DNA of 64,000 nucleotides. Source: an uncultured Bacteriovoracaceae bacterium. Lineage in GTDB: Bacteria; Desulfobacterota; Desulfomonilia; UBA1062. Positions 10,406-60,610 of the stretch are shown in pieces. A program made the position numbers and the translations under genes. Every line of letters begins with the position of its first letter. Position 1 is the first letter of the stretch. The DNA lies in NCBI GenBank assembly GCA_964513375.1, contig CAZEMO010000003.1:92730-156729 (forward strand), in the 5' to 3' direction. The notes under the pieces are model-generated. The model was not told the DNA's origin, ran no database searches, and saw nothing but the letters and a program-made list of their open reading frames with translations.

Positions 10406-12250
10406 ATGAAGAAATCTTATTATTTAATACCTTTTATCAGTTTAGCTTTGATTCTGAGCGGATGCATACTTTCCAAGTCGCCTTCCACTGATTCAGTTTC
10501 CATGAATCTCGGCGATCACCAAGTATTCAGCGTGAAAATCTTTCCGTCTAAAGCAGTATATACCTGGACTCTGGATGGAGCGGCTTTGCCTAACACAGGG
10601 AATTCTTTTATTTACACAGCACAAGCCGGGCAACACTTTCTTACTGTCCGGGCAAAGCACAGTTTAGGCACTGATACCCAGTCCTGGGATATCACTACCT
10701 TTAACACTGCGCCGGTTGCCAGTGCGGGCCCTGATCAAACAGTATCAGTTAATACCAATGTAACCTTAAATGGCTCCGGCTCTTTTGACCAGGATAACAA
10801 CATTGTTTCTTATCAGTGGCAGCAGATAGACGGTCCTTCAGTAGAGCTGAACAATGCATATACTGCCATTGCAAATTTTACAGCATCTGTTGCAATAGGG
10901 TCCACTTTGACCTTCAGGCTGATCATTATAGATGCCGATGGACTTCAGTCAACCGATACATGTTCCGTTACAGTTGAGCAGCTAAACCATAATCCAATCG
11001 CCAATGCCGGCCCTGATCAATCAGTTATTGCAAATGCAACTGTAGTTTTGAATGGCTCCGGCTCTTTTGATCCTGATAATAATATTGTTTCTTATCAGTG
11101 GCAGCAGATATACGGACCTTCCGTTACCCTTAACGATGCAGACACTGCCATTGCAAGCTTTACAGCATCTGTCGAATCTGATTCTACACTGTTGTTTATG
11201 CTGACAGTTACAGATGCTGACGGACTACAGTCAACTGATACATGCTCTGTCACAGTTCCGCAGCCAAACCAGAGCCCTGTCGCTAATGCCGGTCCTGATC
11301 AGAGTGTTTCTGTAAATTCGACCGTTACTCTCTATGGCGCAGGTTCAACCGACCCGAATAATGACATTGTTTCTTATCACTGGCAGCAGAAAAGCGGGAC
11401 TTATCCATATGTAACTCTGACTAATGCGGAAACGGCCATTGCACAGTTCACAGCTACGGTTCCAATAGGAAGAGTACTGACATTTGAGCTTACTGTGACT
11501 GATGCGACAGGACTTCAATCGACAGATTCCTGTGATGTGTCAGTCTCTGTGATCAGTTCTCCTATCACCGACTTGCTTAATTCCATGATCTATCTTCCTG
11601 CCGGTACTTTCATGATGGGCAGAGAGGGCGAATATGCAGCCACCCCTGTCCATCAGGTGAACGTGCAGGGATTCGGAATCGGTGCATACGAGGTAACCCA
11701 GGCACAGTATAAGGCGGTAATGGGTGAGAATCCCTCATATTACCAGGGGCCGAGTTACCCTAACAGCGAAAACAGGCCGGTTGAACTGGTAAGCTGGGAT
11801 AATGCACGCGAATTCTGCGCCGCCCTGTCTGCCGTCACGGGACGAAACTTCACATTGCCGAGTGAAGCCCAGTGGGAATATGCCTGCAGGGCCGGGTCTG
11901 ATACCCTTTTCAGCTTCGGAGATGATGATTCACTGCTTGGCAATTATGCCTGGTACATTTTGAATTCAGGCAATCAGACGCATTACGTCGGCACAAAACT
12001 TCCAAACGCGTGGGGGCTCTACGACATGCACGGCAACGTCTCTGAATGGTGTCTGGATTCATGGCATGAAGATTATACCGGGGCTCCGTCTGACGGCAGC
12101 GCCTGGGAGCCTGATGCCGGTATCGATAGGGTTCTTCGTGATAACTCCTTTGCTTTCTCCGCGAGTGATTTGCATTTGGCGCGTCGTACTTACTCACATC
12201 AGTACACCGGTACCAATAGTTGGGGGTTCCGCATAGTCGAAATCCCTTAA
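10406..12250 (+). CDS. Lipoprotein with an N-terminal paralog-shared module, three PKD domains and a C-terminal FGE-sulfatase (DUF323 / SUMF1-like) domain
   Basis: Lipobox 'LILSGC'. Three repeats of 91 aa carry 'AGPDQxV...LNGSGSFDxDNNIVSYQWQQ'. The C-terminal domain carries 'LPAGTFMMG', 'RPVELVSWDNAREFC', 'LPSEAQWEYACRAG' and 'WGLYDMHGNVSEWC'. The FGE catalytic Cys pair is absent. Confidence 0.85.
   Translation: MKKSYYLIPFISLALILSGCILSKSPSTDSVSMNLGDHQVFSVKIFPSKAVYTWTLDGAALPNTGNSFIYTAQAGQHFLTVRAKHSLGTDTQSWDITTFNTAPVASAGPDQTVSVNTNVTLNGSGSFDQDNNIVSYQWQQIDGPSVELNNAYTAIANFTASVAIGSTLTFRLIIIDADGLQSTDTCSVTVEQLNHNPIANAGPDQSVIANATVVLNGSGSFDPDNNIVSYQWQQIYGPSVTLNDADTAIASFTASVESDSTLLFMLTVTDADGLQSTDTCSVTVPQPNQSPVANAGPDQSVSVNSTVTLYGAGSTDPNNDIVSYHWQQKSGTYPYVTLTNAETAIAQFTATVPIGRVLTFELTVTDATGLQSTDSCDVSVSVISSPITDLLNSMIYLPAGTFMMGREGEYAATPVHQVNVQGFGIGAYEVTQAQYKAVMGENPSYYQGPSYPNSENRPVELVSWDNAREFCAALSAVTGRNFTLPSEAQWEYACRAGSDTLFSFGDDDSLLGNYAWYILNSGNQTHYVGTKLPNAWGLYDMHGNVSEWCLDSWHEDYTGAPSDGSAWEPDAGIDRVLRDNSFAFSASDLHLARRTYSHQYTGTNSWGFRIVEIP
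10709..11557 (+). repeat. Three tandem in-frame repeats of about 273 nt (the PKD domains) inside the lipoprotein gene
   Basis: Near-identical stretches such as 'ggctccggctcttttga...attgtttcttatcagtggcagcagata' recur at 273-nt spacing. Confidence 0.8.
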
Positions 12251-29903: not shown

Positions 29904-30734
29904 TCACCCGGCTTTTCTTTTCTTCGGTTTTCTTCTGTTTTTTTCAGCAGGTTTTTCCTGAGCAATAACGGGTTCAGGCAGGGTCTTTCCGGTTATCAGA
30001 TATAAGCCGGCAGCAATTATGAAGAAAGATATCCATTGTGCCTGAGACATATTAAAACCGACGTTCGGGTTAATGCGGACAATTTCGATTGCAAATCTCA
30101 TTATCCCGTGAATGGTAAGAAAAACGCCGAACAGGGCTGCGGGTTTCTTAAGCCTGTTCCTTAATATCATCAGTATAATAAATGTTATCAGCGCCCCGAA
30201 AGCCTCTATTATGGGTGTGTTAAGCACCACATCGGCCGTTGGAGTAGATCCGTTCGGAAATGACATACATAAAGGGGCAGGCCAGTTGAGACCCAGCCGG
30301 CTGCATGGCTCGCCGTAGCACCCGTCACCTGAAAGAAAACAACCTATCCTGCCGAAGCCATATCCAATAGCGATTGCCGGAGCCGAAGCATCCATAAGGG
30401 TCGTCAATGATATTTTTTTTCTATATCCTGCATAGAGGATAAATGCAGATGCGAAGATTAAGCCCCCATACCATGAACTCCCCATGTTTCTTATGGCTGA
30501 TATGAGATTCAACCCGGATAAACTGTTCGGATGATCCATTATGTGGAAAAGCCTTGCCCCGATGAATGCTCCAATTAGCCCGAGCAGTATTTCAGTAGAG
30601 GCGAATTCTTCCGGAATTCCCCTTCTCTTGAATTCATATCCAAGAAGAAAATAGGCGCACATGAATCCCAGAGCGAGCATAACTCCGTATGAAGTCACAG
30701 GTATTGATCCAATTTTAAAAAATACAGGTATCAT
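29904..30734 (-). CDS. lgt: Prolipoprotein diacylglyceryl transferase
   Basis: Lgt signature 'FGRIGCFLSGDGCYGEP'. Confidence 0.9.
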   Translation of the reverse strand: MIPVFFKIGSIPVTSYGVMLALGFMCAYFLLGYEFKRRGIPEEFASTEILLGLIGAFIGARLFHIMDHPNSLSGLNLISAIRNMGSSWYGGLIFASAFILYAGYRKKISLTTLMDASAPAIAIGYGFGRIGCFLSGDGCYGEPCSRLGLNWPAPLCMSFPNGSTPTADVVLNTPIIEAFGALITFIILMILRNRLKKPAALFGVFLTIHGIMRFAIEIVRINPNVGFNMSQAQWISFFIIAAGLYLITGKTLPEPVIAQEKPAEKNRRKPKKRKAG

Positions 30735-32022: not shown

Positions 32023-32250
32023 TTAAAGATCTCCCCTGCCTGATATTTCGACCTTTGACTCAAGGAGTTTTCTGATTTTTTCCTCATCCACCTGTTCAAT
32101 CCGCAGACATACACCGCAGTTTGAACTTATGTGTCTTGGAACAGGAATAAGCTTGTGCGATACGCCCTCTGCTTTTAATATTTTTTCAGCCATCATCGCA
32201 TGGCTGACCGATTCAAAAAGCAAAGCGACATATTCTCTGACAGGACTCAT
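32023..32250 (-). CDS. DUF3343 family protein
   Basis: 75 aa. 'IPVPRHISSNCGVCLRI' is the characteristic motif. Confidence 0.65.
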   Translation of the reverse strand: MSPVREYVALLFESVSHAMMAEKILKAEGVSHKLIPVPRHISSNCGVCLRIEQVDEEKIRKLLESKVEISGRGDL

Positions 32251-32846
32251 GGTTTGATCAGTCTGGTTGCTGATGACATGACTGAAAGAATCTCGAACAT
32301 GTTTGTAATCTTTCCCGCTCCGGTTTTGCCGGACAGGTTAAAGAAATTGACGCATGTGCCGCACAGAAGAATCTCCACTCCGGCATCGGTAAGGTTTTCA
32401 AGGTCTTCCAATACTTCCGAATCAACTGCCGCCAATTTGACACCCGCATTGTAAAACAGCAGTTTTGAAGGAAGCTCATCCGCTTGAATTAGGGTATGAA
32501 TGAACGCCTTCATGAGAACCTTTCCAAGTTCGTCATCTCCCCTCCCCATTGTTTCAGAAGAGATCACGGCGACCAGTTCGCCCGATGAAGCGCTGCATGA
32601 GACTGGAACATCCGCAATAGCAGCCGTTTCGATATTCACCCCTGTCATATGTATATTGAATTCGCTTTCCCCGGAGTTCTCGATTTCCACTGAACAGCCT
32701 AGCTTTGCTCCCAGCCTTCTGACGTTTTCCATTGCAGTTTTATTATCGACGATGACAACGATGCTCTCGTTTTCTTCAAGGGCTTTTTTTGCAAGGATAA
32801 CCGGCTGCGGGCAGTTCAAACCGCGTGCATCAACGGTTTTCTTCAT
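32247..32846 (-). CDS. yedF: YedF-like protein: TusA-like domain plus DsrE/DsrF-like domain
   Basis: N-terminal 'RGLNCPQPV' CPxP motif. C-terminal 'VISSETMGRGDDELG' and 'LLCGTCVNFF'. Confidence 0.7.
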   Translation of the reverse strand: MKKTVDARGLNCPQPVILAKKALEENESIVVIVDNKTAMENVRRLGAKLGCSVEIENSGESEFNIHMTGVNIETAAIADVPVSCSASSGELVAVISSETMGRGDDELGKVLMKAFIHTLIQADELPSKLLFYNAGVKLAAVDSEVLEDLENLTDAGVEILLCGTCVNFFNLSGKTGAGKITNMFEILSVMSSATRLIKP

Positions 32847-32860
32847 ATTTCAAACTCCTT

Positions 32861-34027
32861 TCATGAACTTCGGCTGATTTCATATAGAGCCTTCAGGCTG
32901 TAATCTATCTCTTCTTCCGTATTGAAATACGCGAAACTGAACCGCAAGGTGCCCGCCGGGAATGTCCCGATTGTTCTATGAGCTTGTGGCGCACAGTGGA
33001 GGCCGGGCCTGCACATTATATTATATTTTTCATCCAGGATAAGGGAAGCTTCCGACGGGCTTATGCCTGAAAGGTTGAATGAAACAACAGCAATCCTGTC
33101 CGAAACCAGCTGCGGCCCGTAAACAATTGCACCTTTTATCTTTTTCAACCCTTCAATGAATTGAGAGATGAGCGACACCTCCTTATCCCTGATTATATCG
33201 ACTCCAGTTTTTTCTATGAACCGGATGCCGGCATTGAGGCCTGCAATCCCGATTGCGTTCGGCGTTCCCGATTCATATTTATCAGGCATGAAATCAGGCT
33301 GCTGCTCAAATTCAGATTTGCTGCCCGTGCCCCCGGACATTATTGGAGAAATAGCTTGTTCCAGTCCCTTTCTTATATAAAGTCCCCCAGTACCCTGCGG
33401 CCCGAACAAAGATTTGTGCCCTGTAAAAGCAAGAATATCGACACCCATGCCTTTGACATCAATCGGTAATGCGCCTGCTGTCTGTGCAGCATCCGCACAG
33501 AATATTATTCCGTGATCCCGTGCAATACGCCCGACTTCGGTAACAGGCATGACTGCGCCTGTAACATTTGAGGCATGAGTCAGGTATATCGCCCTGGTAT
33601 CCGGCTTTATTGCACGCCTTATACCATCCGGGTCAAGCATGCCTGTTTCGGAACAGCCTACGATATCAAGCCTGACGCCTGACAATTCCAATGACCTTAA
33701 GGGCCGCATGACTGAGTTATGCTCCATGCTTGAAGTTACGCAGTGGTCTCCAGGTTTCAGCAGTCCTTTTATTGCTATATTGAGAGCTTCTGTGGCATTT
33801 TTAGTGAGTACAATACGCAGAGGATCATCAGCCCCTAAGATACTGGCTATTCTATCCCTTGCCTCGAATATGACCCTTCCTGAATCAATGGACTTTTTGT
33901 GGCCAGACCGGCCAGGACTGGCCCCGATTCCGACGCTGAAATCCGTCATGGCCTCTATCATTGATTCCGGCTTTGGCCACGAAGTAGCAGCGTTGTCGAA
34001 ATAAACAGTTTCCACCTGTATGATCAC
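32861..34027 (-). CDS. Cysteine desulfurase family protein (class-V aminotransferase)
   Basis: 'YFDNAATSWPKP', PLP lysine 'FTGHKSLFGPQGTGGLYI' and a C-terminal Cys loop 'RPGLHCAPQAH'. Confidence 0.85.
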   Translation of the reverse strand: MIIQVETVYFDNAATSWPKPESMIEAMTDFSVGIGASPGRSGHKKSIDSGRVIFEARDRIASILGADDPLRIVLTKNATEALNIAIKGLLKPGDHCVTSSMEHNSVMRPLRSLELSGVRLDIVGCSETGMLDPDGIRRAIKPDTRAIYLTHASNVTGAVMPVTEVGRIARDHGIIFCADAAQTAGALPIDVKGMGVDILAFTGHKSLFGPQGTGGLYIRKGLEQAISPIMSGGTGSKSEFEQQPDFMPDKYESGTPNAIGIAGLNAGIRFIEKTGVDIIRDKEVSLISQFIEGLKKIKGAIVYGPQLVSDRIAVVSFNLSGISPSEASLILDEKYNIMCRPGLHCAPQAHRTIGTFPAGTLRFSFAYFNTEEEIDYSLKALYEISRSS

Positions 34028-35214
34028 TCCGTAATTTCCATAAGTGCCTGCACCCTTGTTTTTATCTGTTTAATATCGCTTTCCGAATAATCTGTCTCAA
34101 TCTTCAGGAACGGCAGGCTGTGTCTTGTCTTTACGTGCTCCCTCACCCTGAATGATTCGATGTTGTACGCATGGCATGCATGGAGGATTACGTCAATCAC
34201 CATGTCTGGCCTGTATTTTTCAATCAGTTCATCAAGCTTGTTTAGCCTTCTATCATTGGGTGACATGCATGAGCAGTGGAGATCCATATACCGTTCTGAC
34301 AGTGCCATCACAGGGTCGTCAGTGTCTTCGGCAATTGTTCCCATAAAGGGCTTAAACCCCGTACAATTATCGATGGCGACAATGACGCCACCGGACTCTT
34401 CTACGGCACGATAGACCTTCATGGCATCACCGCCGACAGGACACCCCGTTATGAGAACACGAGGCAAATCGGCACTTCCAATCGAGAGACACTGCTCTTT
34501 CCTTATCTGAAGTTTCTTTAGACAATCTTCAAGGATGGGTTTCATATCTTCATATGTTGCAGGCTGGGCAAGATATGTAAGGTCATATATCTCGGCCCAT
34601 TTCAGATATGAAGGTTTCATTGCAGCATAGCTGAAAATCTGTTCAAGCAGCTTGTTCTTCATGTTTGAATCCCTGATCTCGTTCTCGATAGCTGAATCAT
34701 CGATTTTAACCGAAAAGGTCTCTTCAAAGAACGACTGAAGGTTTCTTATTATCTGAGCCCAGTTTTTCCTTGCTGTCATACTGTCGGGCATTTGCGGAAG
34801 GTCCATCACATACATTGGTTTTTTATCCGCGATAAGTTCAAACATCTTTTTTTTGCCGTCACAGGTGGTTTCAGCGACAACCGCTTCGGATAAAGCGAAA
34901 AACGGGCATGAATCCGATATTATGAACCCATAGCTGGATTTGATGAGAGGGCACAGATTTGAAGGCAATACAGACTCGGAAACATCAATCGTCTTATTTG
35001 AAAAAGCGCACAGAACTGCGGGGACCGCACCCATTGCCCTGAAAAGTTCCAGAGGCGCAAAACCGCAGTAGGTACCGATTATGGGCCTGCCTTCTTCCCT
35101 CTTCGACTGTATATATGACAGAGCCCTTTTGCTCGGCTCGCCAGCAAACTGATCGTTAAAAAGTGGTTCAATAGTATTGTCTTTGAGCATAATCACCTCA
35201 TTTGCTTTTTTCAT
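34024..35214 (-). CDS. HgdB/BcrC/BadD family protein (2-hydroxyacyl-CoA dehydratase D-component-like, possible double-cubane-cluster protein)
   Basis: 'GRPIIGTYCGFAPLELFRAMGAVPAVLC' is the hallmark of the HGD-D family, and there are multiple conserved Cys. It overlaps the desulfurase gene by 4 nt. Confidence 0.7.
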   Translation of the reverse strand: MKKANEVIMLKDNTIEPLFNDQFAGEPSKRALSYIQSKREEGRPIIGTYCGFAPLELFRAMGAVPAVLCAFSNKTIDVSESVLPSNLCPLIKSSYGFIISDSCPFFALSEAVVAETTCDGKKKMFELIADKKPMYVMDLPQMPDSMTARKNWAQIIRNLQSFFEETFSVKIDDSAIENEIRDSNMKNKLLEQIFSYAAMKPSYLKWAEIYDLTYLAQPATYEDMKPILEDCLKKLQIRKEQCLSIGSADLPRVLITGCPVGGDAMKVYRAVEESGGVIVAIDNCTGFKPFMGTIAEDTDDPVMALSERYMDLHCSCMSPNDRRLNKLDELIEKYRPDMVIDVILHACHAYNIESFRVREHVKTRHSLPFLKIETDYSESDIKQIKTRVQALMEITE

Positions 35215-35802: not shown

Positions 35803-36810
35803 CTATTTTTGCTTTAAATCATTCAAATCCAGCGTGTTAAGCCATCGCATCGTTTCTTCAAAGCCCATGCTGTATGGTATCCTGGGTTTCCAGTCAAGCT
35901 CCTCCCTGGCCTTTTTGATTGAGAATACCATCCTTGAGTGAAGATTTTTAACTGTATAAGTGGTCAGCAGAGGACGCGACTCTATTTTAAAGAGTCTCCA
36001 CACAACCTCCATCACTAATGCAGCCAAGTAAGCAGCAGTATAAGGTATATATGTCTTAATCTCGATAGCGTTAACGGCTTTTGCAATGCCTGCACAGAAC
36101 TGTTCAAGGGTAACCGATACGCCGTCATGCACAAGATAGCCGTTGCCGATAGCCCTGTCGTCTTCTGAAACAATCATCAGCAGATCCATGAGATTATCTA
36201 TGTAAGTGGGCCAGATAATCGCCCCCTTCTGCCAGAATATCATATCTTTTTTTATGATGGCGTCTGCGAGCAGAGGCACAAACGTCTTATCTCCCGGGCC
36301 ATATACCCATAACGGGTAGACCATACTTACAGACAGACCGTGTTCCTTGTGATATTTCCAGGCGATTTTTTCCGCCATGATTTTTGAATCGGGATATGGT
36401 TCTTTCCAGAAACGCAGCGGCAGGGTTTCATCTATTGTAATGTCTTCACGAAGTCCGAATACATCGCTTGTGCTTATATCAATGAACCTTTTAACGCCCG
36501 CATTCAGTGATGCTTTACAGATATTCTCCATACCGCCTACAGTCACCTCCATGAACATCTTTTTTGGAGCCCAATCCGTTGCAACTGCAGCACAGTGGAA
36601 AATAACATCCCTACCAACACAAGCTTTTTCCAGTGACTTGTATTTCCTCATGTCTCCATAGCAGACCTCGACACCTCTGCTCTTAAGCACCACTCCCTCG
36701 GTGTCACCCTGCATGACCAAAGCGGCTACGGCATCCCCTCTTGTAAGACAGGTATTGACGATATGGCTGCCTATAAATCCTGTTGCACCGGTCACCAGAA
36801 CCCTTCTCAT
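35803..36810 (-). CDS. NAD-dependent epimerase/dehydratase (extended SDR)
   Basis: 'VLVTGATGFIGSH' and the catalytic YxxxK 'YPDSK'. Confidence 0.85.
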   Translation of the reverse strand: MRRVLVTGATGFIGSHIVNTCLTRGDAVAALVMQGDTEGVVLKSRGVEVCYGDMRKYKSLEKACVGRDVIFHCAAVATDWAPKKMFMEVTVGGMENICKASLNAGVKRFIDISTSDVFGLREDITIDETLPLRFWKEPYPDSKIMAEKIAWKYHKEHGLSVSMVYPLWVYGPGDKTFVPLLADAIIKKDMIFWQKGAIIWPTYIDNLMDLLMIVSEDDRAIGNGYLVHDGVSVTLEQFCAGIAKAVNAIEIKTYIPYTAAYLAALVMEVVWRLFKIESRPLLTTYTVKNLHSRMVFSIKKAREELDWKPRIPYSMGFEETMRWLNTLDLNDLKQK

Positions 36811-36925
36811 GAAAAGCCTCCCGAACCAAATGTATATTACCTTCTTGCTCTTGCTGATTTATGATTTATATTATATGTAGTTGAGGTTTAACAATAATAA
36901 TTATTTCAATGTGAGGTAAGGGGAT

Positions 36926-39379
36926 ATGAAACATTCATTATTAATCGGCAGCAAGTTCATCATCTTTTCGTTTCTGGCGATTTTGATTACTTTTTCAGGC
37001 TGCAAACTTAAGCCAGTTCCGGCAGGCACTTTTGTCATGGGCAGCCCGGAAAACGAGTTCGGTCACAGGGCAAATGAAGTTCAGCATGAAGTGACCCTGA
37101 CATATGATATCGAAGTCGCTTCGACAGAGGTCACCTGGAGCGATTTCAAAAGCCTCATGGGATTTGATCCGAGCTATTTCTCAAAAACCCTGCCAAATCC
37201 GGGAAAGCCCGTTGAAAACGTCAGCTGGTATGATGCCCTTGCATATGCAAACGCAAAGTCCATTAAAAAGGGGCTTGCCCCTGCCTACATATTAAATAAC
37301 GCCGTATGCGATGATGGCACAGCGGTTACCGACTGTATGGAATGCAAGACTCACGGGGGAATTAAATCCGCTGATGTCAGTCTGAACGGCATTGCCAGCG
37401 TTTACCAGGCAGAGGGATACCGACTTCCGACAGAGGCCGAATGGGAATATGCGGCACGTGCCGGGTCGACCTCACCTGTTTACAACGGCGAGATTTCTGT
37501 TCCAGGATGCGAAGGCGACCCCATACTTGATAAAATCGCCTGGTACTGTGCTAACAGCTCAAGTTTCACACATAACGTCGGCCTCAAATCACCAAATAAA
37601 TGGGGCCTTTATGACATGAGCGGGAACATCGAGGAGTGGTGCTGGGATAATTACGGAGACTATGCAGGCGATATAATCAATCCCACTGGCCCGGATACCG
37701 GACATTTCAAGGTTGTACGCGGCGGCAGCATCCGTTTCGACGGTTCCTCCAGGCTGCGTTCGGCATACCGTGAAGGATTCACTCCAGGCTACAGATGCCG
37801 TTTTATTGGCTTCCGCCTGGTAAAAACCAAGAACCCTTCCGCCAGCGCCGGAATCAATGTTGTATTAAACCCCGCCACACCACCTTCTTATGAATTAACA
37901 GCGAGCATACCTGATTACCCGAATGCACTGCCATTCTCATTCACGAGGGTAGATGAAGGCACACCTCTTACAGATGCAGAGATAAAGGCCTTTACGAAAA
38001 AGATCACAGGCCTATGGAAAGACACTCACTATTTTGAATGGATGTATCTTACAAGCAACGGGATGGACGAGTCCAACCCTTACGGCATGCCATGGTATAA
38101 GGCGCACCTGCAGGATTTTTCAGCCGAGAAGAACGGAGACACCGTCACATTCCACCACGGCGGAGGATCGGATAACCTCTGGATCCGTTCGGGTAAGATG
38201 CTCAACAATGTGATTGCAGGGTACCTGGCAAGCAGCGATCCTCTCATGGGAAAGATCGCCGAAAGCTATTGCAGGGGTATCGAAGCATTCTTCAAGGGCG
38301 AAGAATACAGCGACAATGACCCTGAAAGAACCATCATGCCCCGCTGCATATTCACGCAAAACCATGAATACACAGTACTCGGCAGAAAGGTTAAGGTTGA
38401 TTATGACCCGGTCAAGACGCACGGCGAGAAATATGACTGGAATGCACACACCATACCTAACCACATCAATCCGTATTACGGCGATATCTATATAAGGAAT
38501 ATGAGGAGCAAGGACGATGTCCCGCATATCTACAGAATGGTCCCGATGATAATGCGGCTTGCAAAAGAGGCCCCTGATGCAAACATAAGAAACGCTGCAA
38601 CAAGGGCGGTTGCCTACCTGCAGGCGTTCGCCAAAGACATAGTTGATTCCGGCTATTACATCAGAGCGAAGGACAAGGAAGGGAACACTAAAATAATGTT
38701 TGAAGAGGAAACTTCCTGGCTGGTAAAAGACCTGATGAGTTTCGTGAATTTCGAAATGCTGGTGCCTAACGCTGAATGCAACGCCAAGATGACATCCGCC
38801 ATTCTGGGCTATCAGGATCCGCTCTGCAACGACTGCGGAAGCGGAACAATAAACCTTTACGATATGGTCGCCGGTCAAATCCATTATTACAACATGGCGA
38901 TCGTAGTATATTTCCATCAGGCCGCTATTTCGAATGCGCTTACAAATAATAAGGACTACATAGCACTGGAACTGATCCAGGGAATGTCGGACAGGATGGA
39001 TGCCATGATGGCCGGAAAAGGCAAACCGACAAAAGAACCATGCCCTGACTGGGAGCCTGATCTCGCAACCCACCTTCTGGTTGCCGCATCAAACGGGCTT
39101 CCTCTGAAGTCATCTGAAGCAAGACTGATCGCAAACGAGTACAGCAAGGCTGTGGATCATTATATAACATGGCCCAACTGGAACCTCTGGTCGCCGACAG
39201 TTCCGAACGGCATTGTATCCTACATACCGGGGAACAGCCCGACAACCGATACCCGTGTCGTGGGAGCGGACGAGCTCGCATACCTCCTGGAGTACTGCTA
39301 CTCTCCGTTAAAAAACTCGACCGGAGCAAAGCTCTGTGACTGCAGCATAGTGCTTGACCCCTCACGCTGGGGTGAGTAA
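36926..39379 (+). CDS. Lipoprotein with an N-terminal FGE-sulfatase (DUF323) domain fused to a C-terminal domain of about 530 aa with unknown function
   Basis: Lipobox 'TFSGC'. 'PAGTFVMGSP', 'VSWYDALAYANAKS', 'LPTEAEWEYAARAG', 'WGLYDMSGNIEEWC' and 'RGGS'. No catalytic Cys pair. The remainder (aa 290-817) matches nothing I recognise. Confidence 0.8.
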   Translation: MKHSLLIGSKFIIFSFLAILITFSGCKLKPVPAGTFVMGSPENEFGHRANEVQHEVTLTYDIEVASTEVTWSDFKSLMGFDPSYFSKTLPNPGKPVENVSWYDALAYANAKSIKKGLAPAYILNNAVCDDGTAVTDCMECKTHGGIKSADVSLNGIASVYQAEGYRLPTEAEWEYAARAGSTSPVYNGEISVPGCEGDPILDKIAWYCANSSSFTHNVGLKSPNKWGLYDMSGNIEEWCWDNYGDYAGDIINPTGPDTGHFKVVRGGSIRFDGSSRLRSAYREGFTPGYRCRFIGFRLVKTKNPSASAGINVVLNPATPPSYELTASIPDYPNALPFSFTRVDEGTPLTDAEIKAFTKKITGLWKDTHYFEWMYLTSNGMDESNPYGMPWYKAHLQDFSAEKNGDTVTFHHGGGSDNLWIRSGKMLNNVIAGYLASSDPLMGKIAESYCRGIEAFFKGEEYSDNDPERTIMPRCIFTQNHEYTVLGRKVKVDYDPVKTHGEKYDWNAHTIPNHINPYYGDIYIRNMRSKDDVPHIYRMVPMIMRLAKEAPDANIRNAATRAVAYLQAFAKDIVDSGYYIRAKDKEGNTKIMFEEETSWLVKDLMSFVNFEMLVPNAECNAKMTSAILGYQDPLCNDCGSGTINLYDMVAGQIHYYNMAIVVYFHQAAISNALTNNKDYIALELIQGMSDRMDAMMAGKGKPTKEPCPDWEPDLATHLLVAASNGLPLKSSEARLIANEYSKAVDHYITWPNWNLWSPTVPNGIVSYIPGNSPTTDTRVVGADELAYLLEYCYSPLKNSTGAKLCDCSIVLDPSRWGE

Positions 39380-39384
39380 ATAAA

Positions 39385-39420
39385 AAAATCCCCTTCCGCT
39401 CCCGGAAGGGGATTTTTGTT
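39385..39420 (+). terminator. Rho-independent terminator
   Basis: AAATCCCCTTCCG-CTCC-CGGAAGGGGATTT followed by TTGTT, 6 nt after the stop codon. Confidence 0.7.
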
Positions 39421-39493
39421 ATTAGAGTGTTGACATTTCGGATTTGAAGTTGATTATCAGATAAACAGTCAAATTAAAATCCAGGAGCATAAA

Positions 39494-40338: not shown

Positions 40339-41754
40339 ATGGATGAAACAATGTCCTTTTTGAAAGCAGGTGTTGACAGAATAATCATAACGCCTCCCCG
40401 CGGTATTTATCTGATCGGATATTCAGGAAGAAAGGGCGGTGCGGAAGAAGTACATTCCGACCTTACGTCAACAGCACTCATCCTCGATGATGGAAATGAA
40501 AAGTTGGTCCTTATTTCACTCGATCTGCTCGCACTCAACCGGGAGACGGTTGACGCCATAAAGAGAGGTATAACTGCAAGACTCGGAACTGCTGCAAATA
40601 GCATAAGGCTTTTCTGCTCACATACTCATTCGGGACCCATTGCCTGGCCGCCATATAAACCCGCAATCAAAGACAGGATGAAATATTACCTTTACAGGCT
40701 AATGCTTTCGGCAGAGGAACCGCTCTCGACAAAAGGCATAATGACCAACTATTTTTACTGTGACTGGCTGGTGAAAAGCATTATTGCGTCTGCAACTCGC
40801 GCTGAGGCAAACCTTATGGATGCCGAAATAAACCATGCCCGGACAGAATGCTCTATCGGCATCAACAGAAGGGAAAGGCTTCCTGACGGCACAACCGTCA
40901 TAGGCTGGAATAAGGAAGGCACTGTTGACAGGAGTGTTGATATCTTAAGGGTTTCAAGCGGCGCGAAACCTGTTGTCACGATTGTCAATTACGCCTGCCA
41001 TGCCTGCGTGCTGGGCGAAGAAAGCAACGTGATCTCCGCTGACTGGCCGGGAGCGATGAGGGCTCGGGTTGAAAAGGAGCTGGGCGGCCTCTGCATGTTC
41101 ATTCAGGGGGCATGCGCCAACATAAACCCCGATGTAGAGTGGTCGGACGACAACAGACCTGATGTAGAGCGGCTTGGCGGTATAGTCGCTGAATCTGTTA
41201 TTGAGGCTGAAGGAAGGCTGACTAAAATAAACTCTCTACCCTTGTCAGGTGTTACGGGCGAGACCAATGCCTATTTGGATGTTCCCGCAGGCATGGAAAG
41301 TTTGAGTGTTAAAAGGATTTACAGGCCCATGCTTAAAAAAGGGGCTGCCATGCTCATGGAAGGTGCGGTGATACCCGAATTTATGATAGACCCGTTTCTT
41401 GATGTCCGCTATCCCTGGAAGACTATATTGAACCGTGATGATAAGGGCTATTTCACCCCAATACGAACCGGCGTGATTCGCATAGGCGATATTGCAATTG
41501 CCTCGGTAGCGATGGAGACATTTACGGAAACAGGCATTGAGACGAAGAAGGCATCAACCGCACCGATAACCCTTTTCACGGGATATACCGACGGTATGAC
41601 CGGCTACCTTCCGACTGCTGAGGAAATCTCCTTTGGAGGCTACGAGGTCGATGTCGTGGCTTACATTTACAAGCTACCTGGAAGATTCAGGCTTGATACG
41701 GAAAAAAATGTAAGAAAACTTCTTTTGGATCAAATTAATATGATCTTTGCGTAA
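40339..41754 (+). CDS. Neutral/alkaline ceramidase-like hydrolase (N-terminal ceramidase_alk domain)
   Basis: 'VDRIIITPPRGIYLIGYSGR' and 'GNEKLVLISLDLLAL' resemble the neutral ceramidase N-terminus. 'CSHTHSGP' is also present. Confidence 0.6.
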   Translation: MDETMSFLKAGVDRIIITPPRGIYLIGYSGRKGGAEEVHSDLTSTALILDDGNEKLVLISLDLLALNRETVDAIKRGITARLGTAANSIRLFCSHTHSGPIAWPPYKPAIKDRMKYYLYRLMLSAEEPLSTKGIMTNYFYCDWLVKSIIASATRAEANLMDAEINHARTECSIGINRRERLPDGTTVIGWNKEGTVDRSVDILRVSSGAKPVVTIVNYACHACVLGEESNVISADWPGAMRARVEKELGGLCMFIQGACANINPDVEWSDDNRPDVERLGGIVAESVIEAEGRLTKINSLPLSGVTGETNAYLDVPAGMESLSVKRIYRPMLKKGAAMLMEGAVIPEFMIDPFLDVRYPWKTILNRDDKGYFTPIRTGVIRIGDIAIASVAMETFTETGIETKKASTAPITLFTGYTDGMTGYLPTAEEISFGGYEVDVVAYIYKLPGRFRLDTEKNVRKLLLDQINMIFA

Positions 41755-41773
41755 GTTAAATAAGGGAGGGCAA

Positions 41774-43645
41774 ATGGAAAGGACGTCATTATTATTTGTA
41801 TTTGTGTTTGTTACCATCATAACAGGTTGTTCATACTTTAATAAGAACATGCCTGATCATGACATCATGGTATCTCATAAAAAGTGGAGATACTTTTTAA
41901 TGTTTAGAAAAATTATCGTAATCATTACTTTGATACTTTTCCTTTCAATTTCTGCGAATGCAGAGTCATTGCAACAGTTGCCTCAAATCTCGAAAGAAGA
42001 TTTTTATCAGCTTATCAAGAAAGCAGATACTAGTGATGCCAATGCGCAGTTTTTGCTTGGCATGCGATATTTGCATGGATGGAGCACAAACAAGGACGAG
42101 ATGGAGGGTGTCAAATGGCTGACAAAAGCTGCTGACCAAGACCATGCTTATGCGGAATTCTTTATTGGAGTCATTTACTGTTCCGGAGGTAGCGTTATTA
42201 AAGCCGATAACAATAAATGTATTGATTTGATTACTAAAGCCGCTAAACAAAATATCAAAGAAGCACAAACATTTCTCGGCCAATTTTACTGTGATGGTGA
42301 AATAGTCACAAAGGATTATGTAAAAGCTATGGAATGGTTTAAAAAAGCAGCAGATCAGGGATATGAAGATGCTCAGTATAGAATTGGCAAACTATATGAA
42401 GAAGGAAAAGGCGTTTCTAAAAATGATCAAGAAGCTGTTAATTGGTACGCAAAAGCTGCAACACAAGGATACGGCAAAGCCCAGATGGTATTAGGTTATA
42501 TATATTCTAATGGCGATGAGTCTGTAAGAGATTATAAAAATTCGTTTGAATGGTATGTCAAGGCTGCTCAGTCAGGTATCCAAGAAGCTTTTTTCAATGT
42601 AGGTTTGATGTATGAACAAGGAAGGGGAACGGGAAAAGACTACGCAAAAGCAATAGAGTGGTACAGGAAAGCAGCTGAATACAATGATGCCAAAGCTTTA
42701 TATGCAATCGGCAATATGCATGAGAAAGGTTTGGGAGTTAGAAAAGACTGTAATGAGGCTTTGAAATGGTATCAAAAATTAACTGATAACGGATCTGTTC
42801 AAATTATGTTTTATATTGGAATGATGTACTGGAATGGCTCTTGTGTTCAGAAAAATGATGTGCAGGCTTTAAAATGGTTTTTAAAAGCTGCAAAAGAAGG
42901 ACAACCTGATGCTCAGGCCATGGTCGGGATTATGTATTATGAGGGAGAAGGTGCATCACAAAATTACTCTGAAAGCATGAGATGGCTTTTAAAGGCATCA
43001 GAACAGGGTAATCCGGAATCACCCTATTATTTATATCAAATGTATAAGAATGGAAAGGGAGTTCAGATTAATAATAATGAAGCGGCTAAGTGTTTAAAGC
43101 TATCAGCAGAAAGGGGATATTCTGAAGCGCAAAGAAACCTTGGAACAAGTTATTATTTTGGAAAGGTCACAGAAAAAAATAAAGATGAAGCTGTCAAATG
43201 GTATAAAAAAGCCGCAGAACAAGGTGATGATAAAGCGCAGCAAAGACTTGGAAAGATATATCTTCTAGATGAAAACTTTAAAGAAGCAGTTACATGGCTT
43301 GAGAAGTCAGCTAATCAAAATAATGCAGAAGCCCAAAATGATTTGGGTTATATGTATGATAAGGGACTAGGTGTTACTCAGGATTATACAAAAGCTTTTG
43401 AACTTTATAAGCTCTCATCTGAACGTGGATATATGTATGCCCAACATAATCTTGCTATATTGTTTGAGCAGGGACATGGAACAAAACTTGACATTGTACA
43501 GGCATATAAATGGTTTTCTTTATCTGCTGAACAGGGCGATGAACAAGCAAAAGGTAAAGTTAGTGAGCTTGATAAGCTTTTGCCAAAAGAACAGATTAAC
43601 GAGGCAAAACGCTTGATTGCAGAATATAAGTCTGAAAAGAATTAA
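41774..43645 (+). CDS. Sel1-repeat (SLR/TPR-like) lipoprotein
   Basis: The start was set at 'MERTSLL', which follows a strong AAGGGAGGG RBS, with lipobox 'IITGC'. There are about 14 repeats of 'A..W..KAA.QG...AQ..LG.MY..G.GV..D...A'. GC is markedly lower (about 35%) than in neighbouring genes. Confidence 0.85.
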   Translation: MERTSLLFVFVFVTIITGCSYFNKNMPDHDIMVSHKKWRYFLMFRKIIVIITLILFLSISANAESLQQLPQISKEDFYQLIKKADTSDANAQFLLGMRYLHGWSTNKDEMEGVKWLTKAADQDHAYAEFFIGVIYCSGGSVIKADNNKCIDLITKAAKQNIKEAQTFLGQFYCDGEIVTKDYVKAMEWFKKAADQGYEDAQYRIGKLYEEGKGVSKNDQEAVNWYAKAATQGYGKAQMVLGYIYSNGDESVRDYKNSFEWYVKAAQSGIQEAFFNVGLMYEQGRGTGKDYAKAIEWYRKAAEYNDAKALYAIGNMHEKGLGVRKDCNEALKWYQKLTDNGSVQIMFYIGMMYWNGSCVQKNDVQALKWFLKAAKEGQPDAQAMVGIMYYEGEGASQNYSESMRWLLKASEQGNPESPYYLYQMYKNGKGVQINNNEAAKCLKLSAERGYSEAQRNLGTSYYFGKVTEKNKDEAVKWYKKAAEQGDDKAQQRLGKIYLLDENFKEAVTWLEKSANQNNAEAQNDLGYMYDKGLGVTQDYTKAFELYKLSSERGYMYAQHNLAILFEQGHGTKLDIVQAYKWFSLSAEQGDEQAKGKVSELDKLLPKEQINEAKRLIAEYKSEKN

Positions 43646-45909: not shown

Positions 45910-47265
45910 ATGATCAAGGCAATCATATTTGATTTTGACGGGACCATCATGGACACCGAAAGCACTTCGTTCAACATATGGCGTGAGATCTATTCCACCC
46001 ACGGACACGAACTGACTCTGGAAAAATGGGCTGAATGCGTAGGCATACCGGAAAGCAGCTTCGATCCTTATGAAGACCTGATGGAACTTACCGGCCTACC
46101 GCTTGACCGCATGGAAATGGCCCTTACCTACGTGACAAGGGAGTCTGAATTGAATAAGGGATTGCCTTTGCTTCCGGGCATTGAAAAGATAATCCTTGCT
46201 GCAAAAAGTATCGGCCTTAAGCTCGGAATTGCCTCAAGTGCGGACCATAACTGGATCGAGGAACACCTTGGAAGAAAAAGACTTCTGGGCAGGTTTGACG
46301 CAATCATATGCAGGGAGGATACTGAAAGACACAAACCTTTTCCCGACCCTTATCTCAAGGCAATTGAGGTTCTCGGCTGCAAACCCAGTGAAGCTATTGC
46401 CATAGAAGATTCTCCGAACGGCATAAAAGCAGCCAAGGCTGCCGGTCTATTCACAGTTGCAGTCCCAAATCAGGTAACCCATTCCTTTGTAGGCGATGAG
46501 GCTGACCTTAAACTAAAATCGCTGGCTGATATTACACTCAAAGAACTACTGGCAAGGGGGGTTCGTATGATAAACAATTTAATCAATCAGGTGATTACCG
46601 ATAGCAGTAAATATCTTGCCGGTTTTGCAGACATGACCGGCCTCATTAATGAAAAATACTCCGGATACAATTATGCAATATCTCTTGCCCGACATCTTGA
46701 CAGTGAAATCATCGATTCCATAGATAAAGGCCCGAACAGAGCTTATTTCGATCATTATAATGAAGTTAACCGGGAATTGACCGAAGCAGTCCAGAAGATA
46801 TCAGCAAAGCTTACCGGAGACGGGTTTGACAACATCCCGATAAATCCAACCGTTACAGATGATATTCTCACCGATAATTATTATAAGACCTTAAGAATGG
46901 CATTTTCTCACAAGATGGCTGCCACCAGGGCTGGAATCGGCTGGATAGGAAAAACCGACCTGCTTGTCACAAAGGAATATGGCCCGAGGGTAAGGCTGGC
47001 AAGCATTCTTTTGAAAGAGAGAATCACTGAGCCGAATGCGCCGCTTGAAGAAAGTTTGTGTGGGGATTGCGAGGTCTGCGTTGTCAACTGTCCTGCGCAG
47101 GCCGCAACCGGAGAATTATGGAATATACACACCGACAGGGATAAATTCTATAATCCCTTCAAGTGCATGAAAAAGTGCAGAGAACTGTCATTAAACAATC
47201 TGAACGAACATATCAGCCTCTGTGGCATATGCGTGTCTCTTTGCCCGAAGGGACGACAAACATAA
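45910..47265 (+). CDS. Fusion protein: N-terminal HAD-superfamily hydrolase (beta-PGM-like) plus a C-terminal QueG-like 4Fe-4S domain
   Basis: 'IIFDFDGTIMDTE' is HAD motif I, with 'IEDSPNGIKAAKAAG' as motif III. The C-terminal 'AGIGWIGKTDLLVTKEYGPRVRLASILL', 'CGDCEVCVVNCP' and 'CGICVSLCP' resemble the epoxyqueuosine reductase core. Confidence 0.7.
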   Translation: MIKAIIFDFDGTIMDTESTSFNIWREIYSTHGHELTLEKWAECVGIPESSFDPYEDLMELTGLPLDRMEMALTYVTRESELNKGLPLLPGIEKIILAAKSIGLKLGIASSADHNWIEEHLGRKRLLGRFDAIICREDTERHKPFPDPYLKAIEVLGCKPSEAIAIEDSPNGIKAAKAAGLFTVAVPNQVTHSFVGDEADLKLKSLADITLKELLARGVRMINNLINQVITDSSKYLAGFADMTGLINEKYSGYNYAISLARHLDSEIIDSIDKGPNRAYFDHYNEVNRELTEAVQKISAKLTGDGFDNIPINPTVTDDILTDNYYKTLRMAFSHKMAATRAGIGWIGKTDLLVTKEYGPRVRLASILLKERITEPNAPLEESLCGDCEVCVVNCPAQAATGELWNIHTDRDKFYNPFKCMKKCRELSLNNLNEHISLCGICVSLCPKGRQT

Positions 47266-59173: not shown

Positions 59174-60610
59174 TTACAAACCTAATATCGTCTGTACGTT
59201 ATAGTATTCGCTCTTGAATATCTGCTCATTTGCACCGTCGGACTGCTGCCAGGAAATAGCCGCATTGCCGCTGCTGCTCATAACTACCTGGGGAACAATG
59301 GCATCCTGATTGTCCTGGCTTATATTATCAGTCAGGGACTGAGGCAGTGACCAATTCAGAAGCTGAGCCGGCAGGCCTGAAATCGCACGAAATTCGCTCT
59401 TGAATATCTGGTATTTCCCTGCGGCCTCATTCTGCGAATCACGCTGATACCAGACGATAATAGAATTTCCTTTATTGTCTATCGCCACCTGAGGAAGCCA
59501 TGCAGATGTATCTGCAACGCTTATGCTGTCTGATATATTTGAGGGATGAGCCCATACTTTGCTTCTCAATTCACTTTTGTATATCCTCACTATTCCGTTA
59601 TCAAGTTCCTGTTCCCACGTAATCACGGCACTTCCGCTATCGTTCATTGCAACCTGAGGATAGTATGCATTACCTGCATCAGGACTTATATTGTCTGAAA
59701 GTCCGGTTGGATGATCCCATGCTTCGTCTGAGAAGAAGCTCATAAATATCTGATATCTGTAACCGTCATTCTGCTCCCATGTAATGATAGCCTGTCCAGA
59801 ATCATTCATTGCCGCCTGCGGATAATATGCATCCTCCGAGTTGGGGCTTATATTATCCCCGAGACTTAAAGGATTCGCCCAGATGCCATCTCTCCGCTCA
59901 CTCTTGAATATCTGCCATTTAGCCCCGTCAAACTGCTCCCATGCAACTATTGCATCCCCTATCTCATCCATTGCAACTACTGGATAATATGCGTCCTGCC
60001 CGTCAGGACTGATGTTGACCATAACGGCTCCCGGATGCATCCAAAACCCATTCGTACGTTCGCTCTTGAATATCTGGTAAACTGATCCGTCAGACTGCTG
60101 CCATACAATTACGGCATCTCCTGAAGTGTTCATTACAACCCTGGGATAATTGGCATCAGTCCCTGCAGGGCTTATTGAATCATCAAAATCAAGAGGATGA
60201 GTCCACACCCAGTTTTTCCTCTCACTCTTATAAATTCTGTAATTTGTACCATCATGCTGGACCCATACTATAATGGCATCTCCGTTATCATTGATTGCGA
60301 CCCTTGGATAATAAGCGTTTCTTCCTTCAGGGCTGATATTATCCGTCAGTTTGGTTTTTGCCCATAGGCCGTTTACAAACTCTGCCTTGTAAATCTGGGA
60401 ATTGACTCCATCGGATTGTTCCCATACAACCAGGCCGTTTCCGGCTGAATTGATGGCCATCTGGGGATTTATTGCATCCTGACCTTCAGGGCTTATATTG
60501 TCTGCAAGGCCTGTCGGGTTCGTCCATTTTTTACAGCCAACCGATAAACCGCCAGCAAGAATTATAAAAATAATCATGATACACAGCTTGCTTTTAACCG
60601 GACTCTTCAT
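59174..60610 (-). CDS. Lipoprotein with eight tandem repeats of about 52 aa ('DNISPxGxDAyyPqVAMNxxGxAiIxWeQxDG...IfKSE'), predicted beta-propeller-like
   Basis: The start was reassigned to 'MKSPVKS', which follows AAAGGAGAGG, with lipobox 'SVGC'. The periodic repeats are visible in the translation. Confidence 0.7.
   Translation of the reverse strand: MKSPVKSKLCIMIIFIILAGGLSVGCKKWTNPTGLADNISPEGQDAINPQMAINSAGNGLVVWEQSDGVNSQIYKAEFVNGLWAKTKLTDNISPEGRNAYYPRVAINDNGDAIIVWVQHDGTNYRIYKSERKNWVWTHPLDFDDSISPAGTDANYPRVVMNTSGDAVIVWQQSDGSVYQIFKSERTNGFWMHPGAVMVNISPDGQDAYYPVVAMDEIGDAIVAWEQFDGAKWQIFKSERRDGIWANPLSLGDNISPNSEDAYYPQAAMNDSGQAIITWEQNDGYRYQIFMSFFSDEAWDHPTGLSDNISPDAGNAYYPQVAMNDSGSAVITWEQELDNGIVRIYKSELRSKVWAHPSNISDSISVADTSAWLPQVAIDNKGNSIIVWYQRDSQNEAAGKYQIFKSEFRAISGLPAQLLNWSLPQSLTDNISQDNQDAIVPQVVMSSSGNAAISWQQSDGANEQIFKSEYYNVQTILGL

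Follow-up and report, generated by a model that had tools for sequence, protein, structure and literature searches.

A lipoprotein from an uncultured bacterium in which a formylglycine-generating-enzyme fold without its catalytic cysteines is fused to a predicted (alpha/alpha)-toroid domain

The closest described relatives of the protein reported here belong to two sets. One shares the FGE-sulfatase fold, a C-type-lectin-like fold, and contains the aerobic, copper-dependent formylglycine-generating enzyme (FGE/SUMF1), the non-FGE members PvdO, CarF, PorK/GldK and pFGE/SUMF2, and TvpA of Treponema denticola, which is a target of a diversity-generating retroelement (DGR). The other set is that of the carbohydrate-active (alpha/alpha)-toroids: polysaccharide lyases (PL) of the PL35/PL12/PL15/PL17 type, PL5/PL38 alginate lyases, the glycoside hydrolases (GH) GH8, GH9, GH15, GH76 and GH88/GH105, and AGE-type epimerases. 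Toroid lyases act through a catalytic Tyr/His/Asn triad (PMC12088678). Here we describe a gene at positions 36926–39379 (+ strand) of a 64-kb stretch of contig CAZEMO010000003.1, hereafter the window, which encodes an 817-amino-acid (aa) lipoprotein joining an FGE-sulfatase-fold domain (N-domain) to an uncharacterised domain predicted to be an (alpha/alpha)-toroid (C-domain). We propose that this protein is an exported enzyme active on glycans or glycoconjugates, into which a lectin-like targeting domain is built, a reading whose chances we consider about even.

The gene is one continuous frame of 817 codons, at the position given in a preliminary description of this DNA. That description had also considered a split into two proteins by an undetected frameshift, which is contradicted by the continuous frame and by 39 full-length fused homologues of 45–87% identity. 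The product is a lipoprotein, as had been claimed, with an export signal: its N-terminus, MKHSLLIGSKFIIFSFLAILITFSGC, consists of a basic n-region (K2), a hydrophobic core and the lipobox FSGC with Cys26, and the signal peptide (residues 1–26) is encoded at 36926–37003. The lipobox cysteine is invariant in an alignment of 40 fused homologues and is also present in nearly all standalone members of the C-domain family. Lgt is encoded within the window (29904–30734). The N-domain (residues 31–300) occupies 37016–37825 and is followed by a Pro/Ser/Thr-rich linker, TKNPSASAGINVVLNPATPPSYELTASIPDYPNAL (residues 301–335; 37826–37930), of low predicted local distance difference test score (pLDDT). The C-domain (residues 336–817) occupies 37931–39376.

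The assignment of the N-domain to DUF323 held, since Pfam PF03781 (FGE-sulfatase, the current name of DUF323) spans residues 31–300 with an E-value of 2.3e-41. Among solved structures the closest sequence match was TvpA (2y3c), with an E-value of 2.9e-37, while true FGEs reached merely ~1e-12. HMMER alignments with the human (2afy) and Streptomyces (6muj) FGEs place Phe, and Ser or a gap, at the positions of the two catalytic cysteines that bind copper (C336 and C341 of the human enzyme); the aligned catalytic region reads GGSIRF..DGSSRLRSA here and GGSYMCHRSY(C)YRYRCA in FGE. The domain carries a Cys-rich insert at about residues 117–162, and C128, C140, C195 and C208 are invariant across the 40 fused orthologues, as would suit a binding domain of fixed specificity that lies outside the cytoplasm and is stabilised by disulfides. 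The equivalent of the TvpA variable region is well conserved among the same orthologues, with N224, D230, G233, N234, E237, W238, D241, Y243, R278 and R282 invariant. Because TvpA is a DGR target, the whole window was searched for a template/variable repeat pair; no direct repeat of at least 40 nt was paired with 37600–37850, in a search that was not aimed specifically at a reverse transcriptase. No sulfatase gene was found in the local neighbourhood, among 17 neighbouring open reading frames (ORFs) scanned with Pfam. We conclude that FGE chemistry has been lost and that the N-domain, judged by its residues, is a non-catalytic lectin-like module, which most resembles the ligand-binding members of the fold, TvpA, PvdO, CarF, PorK and pFGE. 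The sole repeat touching the gene was a match of 41 nt, at a conserved motif, to another FGE-sulfatase gene of the window (10406–12250, + strand). The 614-aa product of that gene has a different architecture on the same lectin-like fold, consisting of three PKD domains, encoded by 282-nt tandem repeats (10718–11402), and then an FGE-sulfatase domain at residues 392–611.

The remaining ~530 aa had been described as lacking any recognisable signature. That much stands: residues 309–817 matched no Pfam or NCBIfam family at E ≤ 1 beyond noise, a known family for the C-domain was not found in Pfam, NCBIfam or PDB-sequence searches, and the full protein had no match in PADLOC. The conserved module is somewhat smaller, however, at about 480 aa, and begins at about residue 336, past the 35-aa Pro/Ser linker. 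As previously noted it has no internal repeats (none were found by self-BLASTP), while the Trp/Tyr-rich stretches ascribed to it amount to a moderate enrichment of aromatics (Y 6.0%, W 2.3%), a fair description of something that is not striking. A word-indexed search of 5.8 billion proteins returned 201 homologues of residues 309–817, which are either fused to FGE-sulfatase (815–890 aa) or standalone (~500–600 aa, without a Pfam domain), and which carry the source names 'formylglycine-generating enzyme family protein' or 'hypothetical protein'. When a profile of 73 sequences was used in a hidden Markov model (HMM) search of 1.84 billion cluster representatives, only 231 proteins were matched at E ≤ 1e-3, many of them fragments, and none formed a bridge to an annotated family. 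The C-domain family is therefore compact and isolated. The view that it constitutes a new enzymatic or binding module is thus supported, to the extent that it is a family which no existing model describes.

A scan of 185,579 species-representative genomes found 49 loci, all of them in metagenome-assembled genomes (MAGs), from Myxococcota/Myxococcales, 'Deltaproteobacteria', Bradymonadia, Thermodesulfobacteriota, Polyangiaceae and unclassified bacteria. No C-domain was found by tblastn on annotated plasmids or phages. The nearest relatives of the window's gene, both syntenic with it, are in the MAG of locus L007 (96% aa identity) and in a Desulfomonilia MAG (90%). The former (contig CAYNVT010000012.1) is labelled 'uncultured Bacteriovoracaceae bacterium' and the next closest Desulfomonilia, and one of the two labels is probably wrong.

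An AlphaFold2 model of the C-domain, made with the 73-sequence alignment, had a mean pLDDT of 94.5 and a predicted template-modelling score (pTM) of 0.93, and consists of paired long helices interrupted by beta-hairpins. A Foldseek search of the PDB gave nothing significant, the best hit (E-value 0.04, template-modelling score 0.36) being to GH9 toroids. The toroid structures to which the C-domain was likened were PL35 chondroitinase, GH8, the cellobiose and N-acetylglucosamine 2-epimerases, PssZ and GH15-related proteins, and further a heparinase II/III-like lyase, GH76, alginate lyases, GH88/GH105 and YPO2471, an uncharacterised exported protein. Enzymes make up most of the top structural neighbours. 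The predicted fold class is an (alpha/alpha)-toroid with beta-hairpin decoration.

Among the 73 members 34 columns are invariant. A deeper alignment, which takes in the most divergent full-length members (20–45% identity), shows N417, R473, P516, R527, S528, D530, D531, H664, R690 and G724 (protein numbering) to be invariant in 32 members down to 20% identity, with K529, E617 and the cysteine pairs C618/C637 and C791/C806 at least 90% conserved. The strongest family-wide motif is R527-S528-K529-D530-D531, encoded at 38504–38518 (+ strand) and placed in a beta-hairpin-to-helix loop; the family signature reads [RV][NT][MQ]RSKDD. Retention of such a charged and polar set across so much divergence points to an active site, or to a site for a specific small ligand, and away from a scaffold. 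The two cysteine pairs probably form disulfides that stabilise the domain, and would fit an oxidising, extracytoplasmic location.

Conservation of the fusion in related genomes, which had been suggested as a check, was found in about a third of the loci. In ~17/49 the FGE domain lies directly upstream of the C-domain and is contiguous with it, and in none of the 49 is it a separate adjacent gene. The FGE domains of fused loci are 46–57% identical to that of the window, rising to 83–94% in the two closest relatives. In a neighbour-joining tree of 112 C-domains, 71 of the 72 standalone forms fell into one clade. Since two changes of the fused/standalone character suffice on this tree, one of them being P0045, which is truncated at a contig edge (L014), the fusion or fission happened essentially once and has been kept across ~50% sequence divergence. 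The AlphaFold2 model of the full-length protein had a pLDDT of 88.6, falling below 50 at residues 310–314, and a pTM of 0.90. So high a pTM for an 817-residue two-domain protein, despite the low-confidence linker, implies a defined inter-domain arrangement, with the two domains predicted to pack as a rigid unit.

The two modules also recur together in P0134, a metagenomic giant lipoprotein of 2565 aa that contains a C-domain, an FGE-sulfatase domain and Lcl_C. From its sequence it looks like a surface adhesin that reuses both modules in reverse order; Lcl is a glycosaminoglycan-binding adhesin. Along the chain of P0134 there are Asp-rich linkers, the toroid (569–1063), Cys-rich and beta-propeller-like repeats, FGE-sulfatase (2040–2348) and Lcl_C (2412–2562), and the toroid motif is degenerate, with QSKDN in place of RSKDD. 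An apparent fusion of a C-domain to DUF6055 (P0142) was rejected: a MYXO-CTERM-like tail is followed by a new lipobox in mid-protein, which suggests two merged gene calls. DUF6055 co-occurs with MEROPS M106 and is described in the literature as uncharacterised.

In the mechanism that we propose, the protein would be a membrane-anchored, exported lipoprotein whose two domains are packed into one rigid unit. The N-domain would be a recognition or targeting module of fixed specificity that holds the substrate. The C-domain would be the catalytic part: a periplasmic or surface enzyme of the hydrolase, lyase or epimerase type that cleaves or modifies a glycan or glycoconjugate. Its active site would be the Asp-Asp/His/Asn/Arg cluster that the invariant set N417, R473, R527-S-K-D530-D531, H664 and R690 may form together with E617. 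Three points are inferred, namely the enzymatic nature of the C-domain, a carbohydrate as its substrate, and binding of this same substrate by the N-domain; the pairing of a C-domain with FGE-sulfatase and Lcl_C in P0134 was counted in favour. Several observations weigh against the proposal. No Tyr is invariant in the family, so that the canonical lyase triad is not apparent; Asn417 and His664 are invariant, and might correspond to the Asn neutraliser and the His of the lyase Tyr/His pair. A lax Pfam scan (E ≤ 10) of the 73 members gave no recurrent family, only sporadic HEAT-repeat noise in 9/73; the family profile HMM matched none of the PDB chain sequences; and neither Pfam/NCBIfam nor the PDB-sequence profile search provided a sequence-level link to a CAZy-type family. 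Cluster look-ups returned no cultured or named member, all being MAG or metagenome 'hypothetical proteins'. Finally, the genomic context is weak functional evidence, because a terminator and a promoter-like site, which speak against an operon, lie between the gene and the next one, and because there is no recurrent neighbour: when the 510 ORFs flanking 50 loci were clustered without bias, no partner was present in more than seven.

The C-domain might instead be a non-enzymatic helical toroid that serves for binding or as a scaffold (a receptor, an adhesin or an envelope-structural part), so that the whole would be a two-headed binding protein. It has no catalytic motif recognisable from known families, its FGE-fold partner is itself a binding module, there are the weak HEAT-repeat matches, and the QSKDN of the adhesin-like P0134 suggests that RSKDD is dispensable in some contexts. 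We nevertheless consider this reading unlikely, since N, R, RSKDD, H and R stay invariant down to 20% identity, a pattern that goes more typically with catalysis or the chemistry of small ligands than with protein–protein scaffolds, and since the top structural neighbours are mostly enzymes. Somewhat less likely again is an enzyme acting on something other than carbohydrate. It could modify a lipid, terpenoid or peptide, as do other (alpha/alpha)6 toroids (class II terpene cyclases, LanC-like proteins, thioester domains), or be an amidase that, together with the neighbouring PIG-L and ceramidase-like enzymes, processes an envelope lipid carrying an N-acyl group. The DxDD and CxEQ motifs that define these other toroid enzymes are missing from the C-domain, terpene cyclases and LanC enzymes, which reside in the cytoplasm or within the membrane, are not known as lipoproteins, and structure matches to carbohydrate enzymes exceed those to non-carbohydrate toroids many-fold. 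As for the amidase, a ceramidase-like gene is adjacent in 5/50 loci only, and here a terminator separates the genes.

Two further readings concern the N-domain, and both are very improbable. A genuine sulfatase-maturing FGE with an accessory C-domain would account for the strength of the PF03781 match and for the source name given to homologues, yet it is at odds with the substitution of both copper-binding cysteines, with the non-FGE character of the closest structures and with the lack of a sulfatase gene among the scanned neighbours. A DGR variable protein, such as the closest solved relative TvpA, is the least credible description of the N-domain: the 64-kb window has no template/variable repeat pair, and the equivalent of the variable region is well conserved among orthologues and has ~500 residues following it.

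If the preferred reading, that of a glycan-active enzyme with a lectin-like partner, is taken further, the C-domain may found a new CAZy GH or PL family. This would be a modified (alpha/alpha)-toroid with an unprecedented RSKDD/Asn/His/Arg active site, confined to largely uncultured Myxococcota, Bradymonadia and Desulfobacterota; in one clade of the family, the enzyme would have recruited an FGE-fold lectin for substrate targeting. We regard this extension as tentative. No description of the FGE fold as a carbohydrate-binding module was found, and a literature search on FGE-fold plus toroid lipoproteins of myxobacteria returned nothing relevant. Several of the host lineages are predatory or social bacteria, and glycans from the envelope or matrix of prey or kin are for this reason possible substrates.

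Most probably the gene forms a monocistronic transcription unit of its own, because a terminator follows its stop and a promoter-like site precedes the next gene. A purine-rich ribosome-binding region, GAGGTAAGGGG, was read from the sequence at 36913–36923, upstream of the ATG at 36926. A promoter-like site before it (36809–36838, 9/12 matches) is weak, and such sites were not more frequent across the scanned region than in shuffled sequences. Just past the TAA stop (39377–39379) an intrinsic terminator (39384–39417, + strand) is formed by the stem TCCCCTTCCG, the loop ctcc, the stem CGGAAGGGGA and then TTTTTGTT; because of an A-run on its upstream side, it could act in both directions. The best promoter-like (sigma-70-like) site of the region, TTGACA-16-GATTAT, comes after the terminator at 39430–39457, ahead of a PIG-L gene.

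A second long frame within the gene is an artefact. The 317-aa ORF at 38120–39073 on the − strand, which starts with GTG, had been noted as Cys/His/Arg-rich and probably spurious. Its frame mirrors the sense codons exactly in reverse complement, which means that it can be interrupted only where the sense strand has TTA, CTA or TCA, and these make up none of the 32 Leu/Ser codons in the antisense region, compared with 17/82 elsewhere in the gene. A stop-free antisense run of this length arose in 0.3% of codon-shuffled versions of the gene. This unusual length and codon choice could be taken to favour a real overlapping gene, but a 0.3% event is to be expected many times among the thousands of genes of a genome. 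Moreover, the frame is broken by in-frame stops in the three closest relatives (one in L007, at 90.5% nucleotide identity, three in L002 and two in L006). Compared with L002, 131 of 157 substitutions are at sense third positions, that is, on the antisense first codon position. Identity at the aa level is 60% and 49% for the antisense product against 93% and 86% for the sense product. The antisense product has no Pfam match and contains 5.0% C, 6.3% H and 7.5% R. The existence of a real gene here is thus extremely doubtful, in agreement with the preliminary description.

In the window and its two closest relatives, the gene lies between a divergent short-chain dehydrogenase/reductase (SDR) epimerase/reductase gene and a co-directional set that encodes a PIG-L deacetylase, a ceramidase-like protein, a second PIG-L deacetylase, an SIS/NagB-II-like protein and a HAD sugar phosphatase, with an MFS_2 transporter in L002. 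The amino-sugar and amide-bond chemistry of these neighbours is compatible with glycoconjugate processing. Their conservation is restricted to the two closest genomes (L007 and L008/L002), and an operon-based inference of function was rejected on this account and because of the intervening terminator. The most frequent neighbour family-wide was a Ser/Thr kinase (7/49 loci). The ceramidase-like genes near family members come from two lineages; in the Myxococcales MAGs of L029 and L030 such a gene (a weak Ceramidase_alk match; for example L030 4500–6122, − strand) is within ~2 kb of a standalone member.

Other features of the window were recorded in passing. Between the ceramidase-like and second PIG-L genes, a gene at 41747–43645 (+ strand) encodes a 632-aa protein with 11 Sel1 repeats and has ~38% GC against ~47% around it. 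It is missing from the syntenic loci of L007 and L008/L002, L002 having the MFS_2 transporter nearby in its place, and looks like a recent insertion. At 45910–47265 (+ strand) a HAD (beta-phosphoglucomutase-family) domain and a Fer4_16 (QueG/reductive-dehalogenase-like) domain share one 451-aa ORF. Its counterparts are two overlapping genes (220 and 231 aa) in L002 and were matched in two pieces in L007/L008, so that the ORF is either a genuine fusion or an assembly indel. A cluster at 32247–35214 (− strand) comprises a double-cubane-cluster anaerobic reductase (NF040772, 435 bits, cutoff 350), a class-V aminotransferase/cysteine desulfurase and TusA. Clusters of this type in L002 and L006 have an added Se_S_carrier gene, pointing to sulfur/selenium trafficking unrelated to the fusion gene. 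Families of direct repeats of 49–99 nt at 59208–60509, spaced mostly by multiples of ~162 nt (162, 162, 321, 342; exception 186), suggest a gene for a repetitive-domain protein.

Two corrections of annotation follow from this work: the name FGE should be dropped for the gene, and the 317-aa antisense ORF should be left out of annotations. Should the toroid domain prove to be an enzyme, it would represent a founding family of exported proteins active on glycans, from lineages in which hardly any biochemistry has been done (Myxococcota, Bradymonadia and Desulfomonilia MAGs), and the catalogue of polysaccharide-degrading folds and motifs would be extended. The rigid fusion would then be a clear case in which a cysteine-less FGE fold provides a catalytic partner with a targeting or lectin module, and would help in interpreting the thousands of bacterial proteins that now wrongly bear the name 'formylglycine-generating enzyme family protein'.

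Compared with the known systems, what is new here is the C-domain family and its fusion, while the fold class is known. The PL8/12/15/17/21/35/39-type lyases share an (alpha/alpha)n toroid domain with the C-domain as modelled. Toroid polysaccharide lyases have, in addition, a separate beta-domain (PMC12088678), whereas the model of the C-domain has only short beta-hairpins between its helices. In profile searches with Pfam, NCBIfam and PDB chain sequences the C-domain matched neither these lyase families nor GH8, GH9, GH15 or GH76. YPO2471 of Yersinia pestis (a putative exported protein, 7tem) is 405 aa long, lacks an FGE domain and, at 7% identity, has no sequence relationship to the C-domain; a literature search on it returned nothing, and it therefore tells nothing about function. 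An FGE fold combined with a toroid turned up in no solved or named protein. FGE/SUMF1 shares the PF03781 fold with the N-domain, from which the catalytic Cu(I)-binding cysteines are missing. TvpA (2y3c) likewise shares the FGE-sulfatase/C-type-lectin-like fold but is a DGR target, and no DGR repeat pair accompanies the gene in the window. In contrast to TvpA and the non-FGE members PvdO, CarF, PorK/GldK and pFGE/SUMF2, the fold here forms the N-terminal part of the protein, in permanent fusion with a toroid domain of 480 aa.

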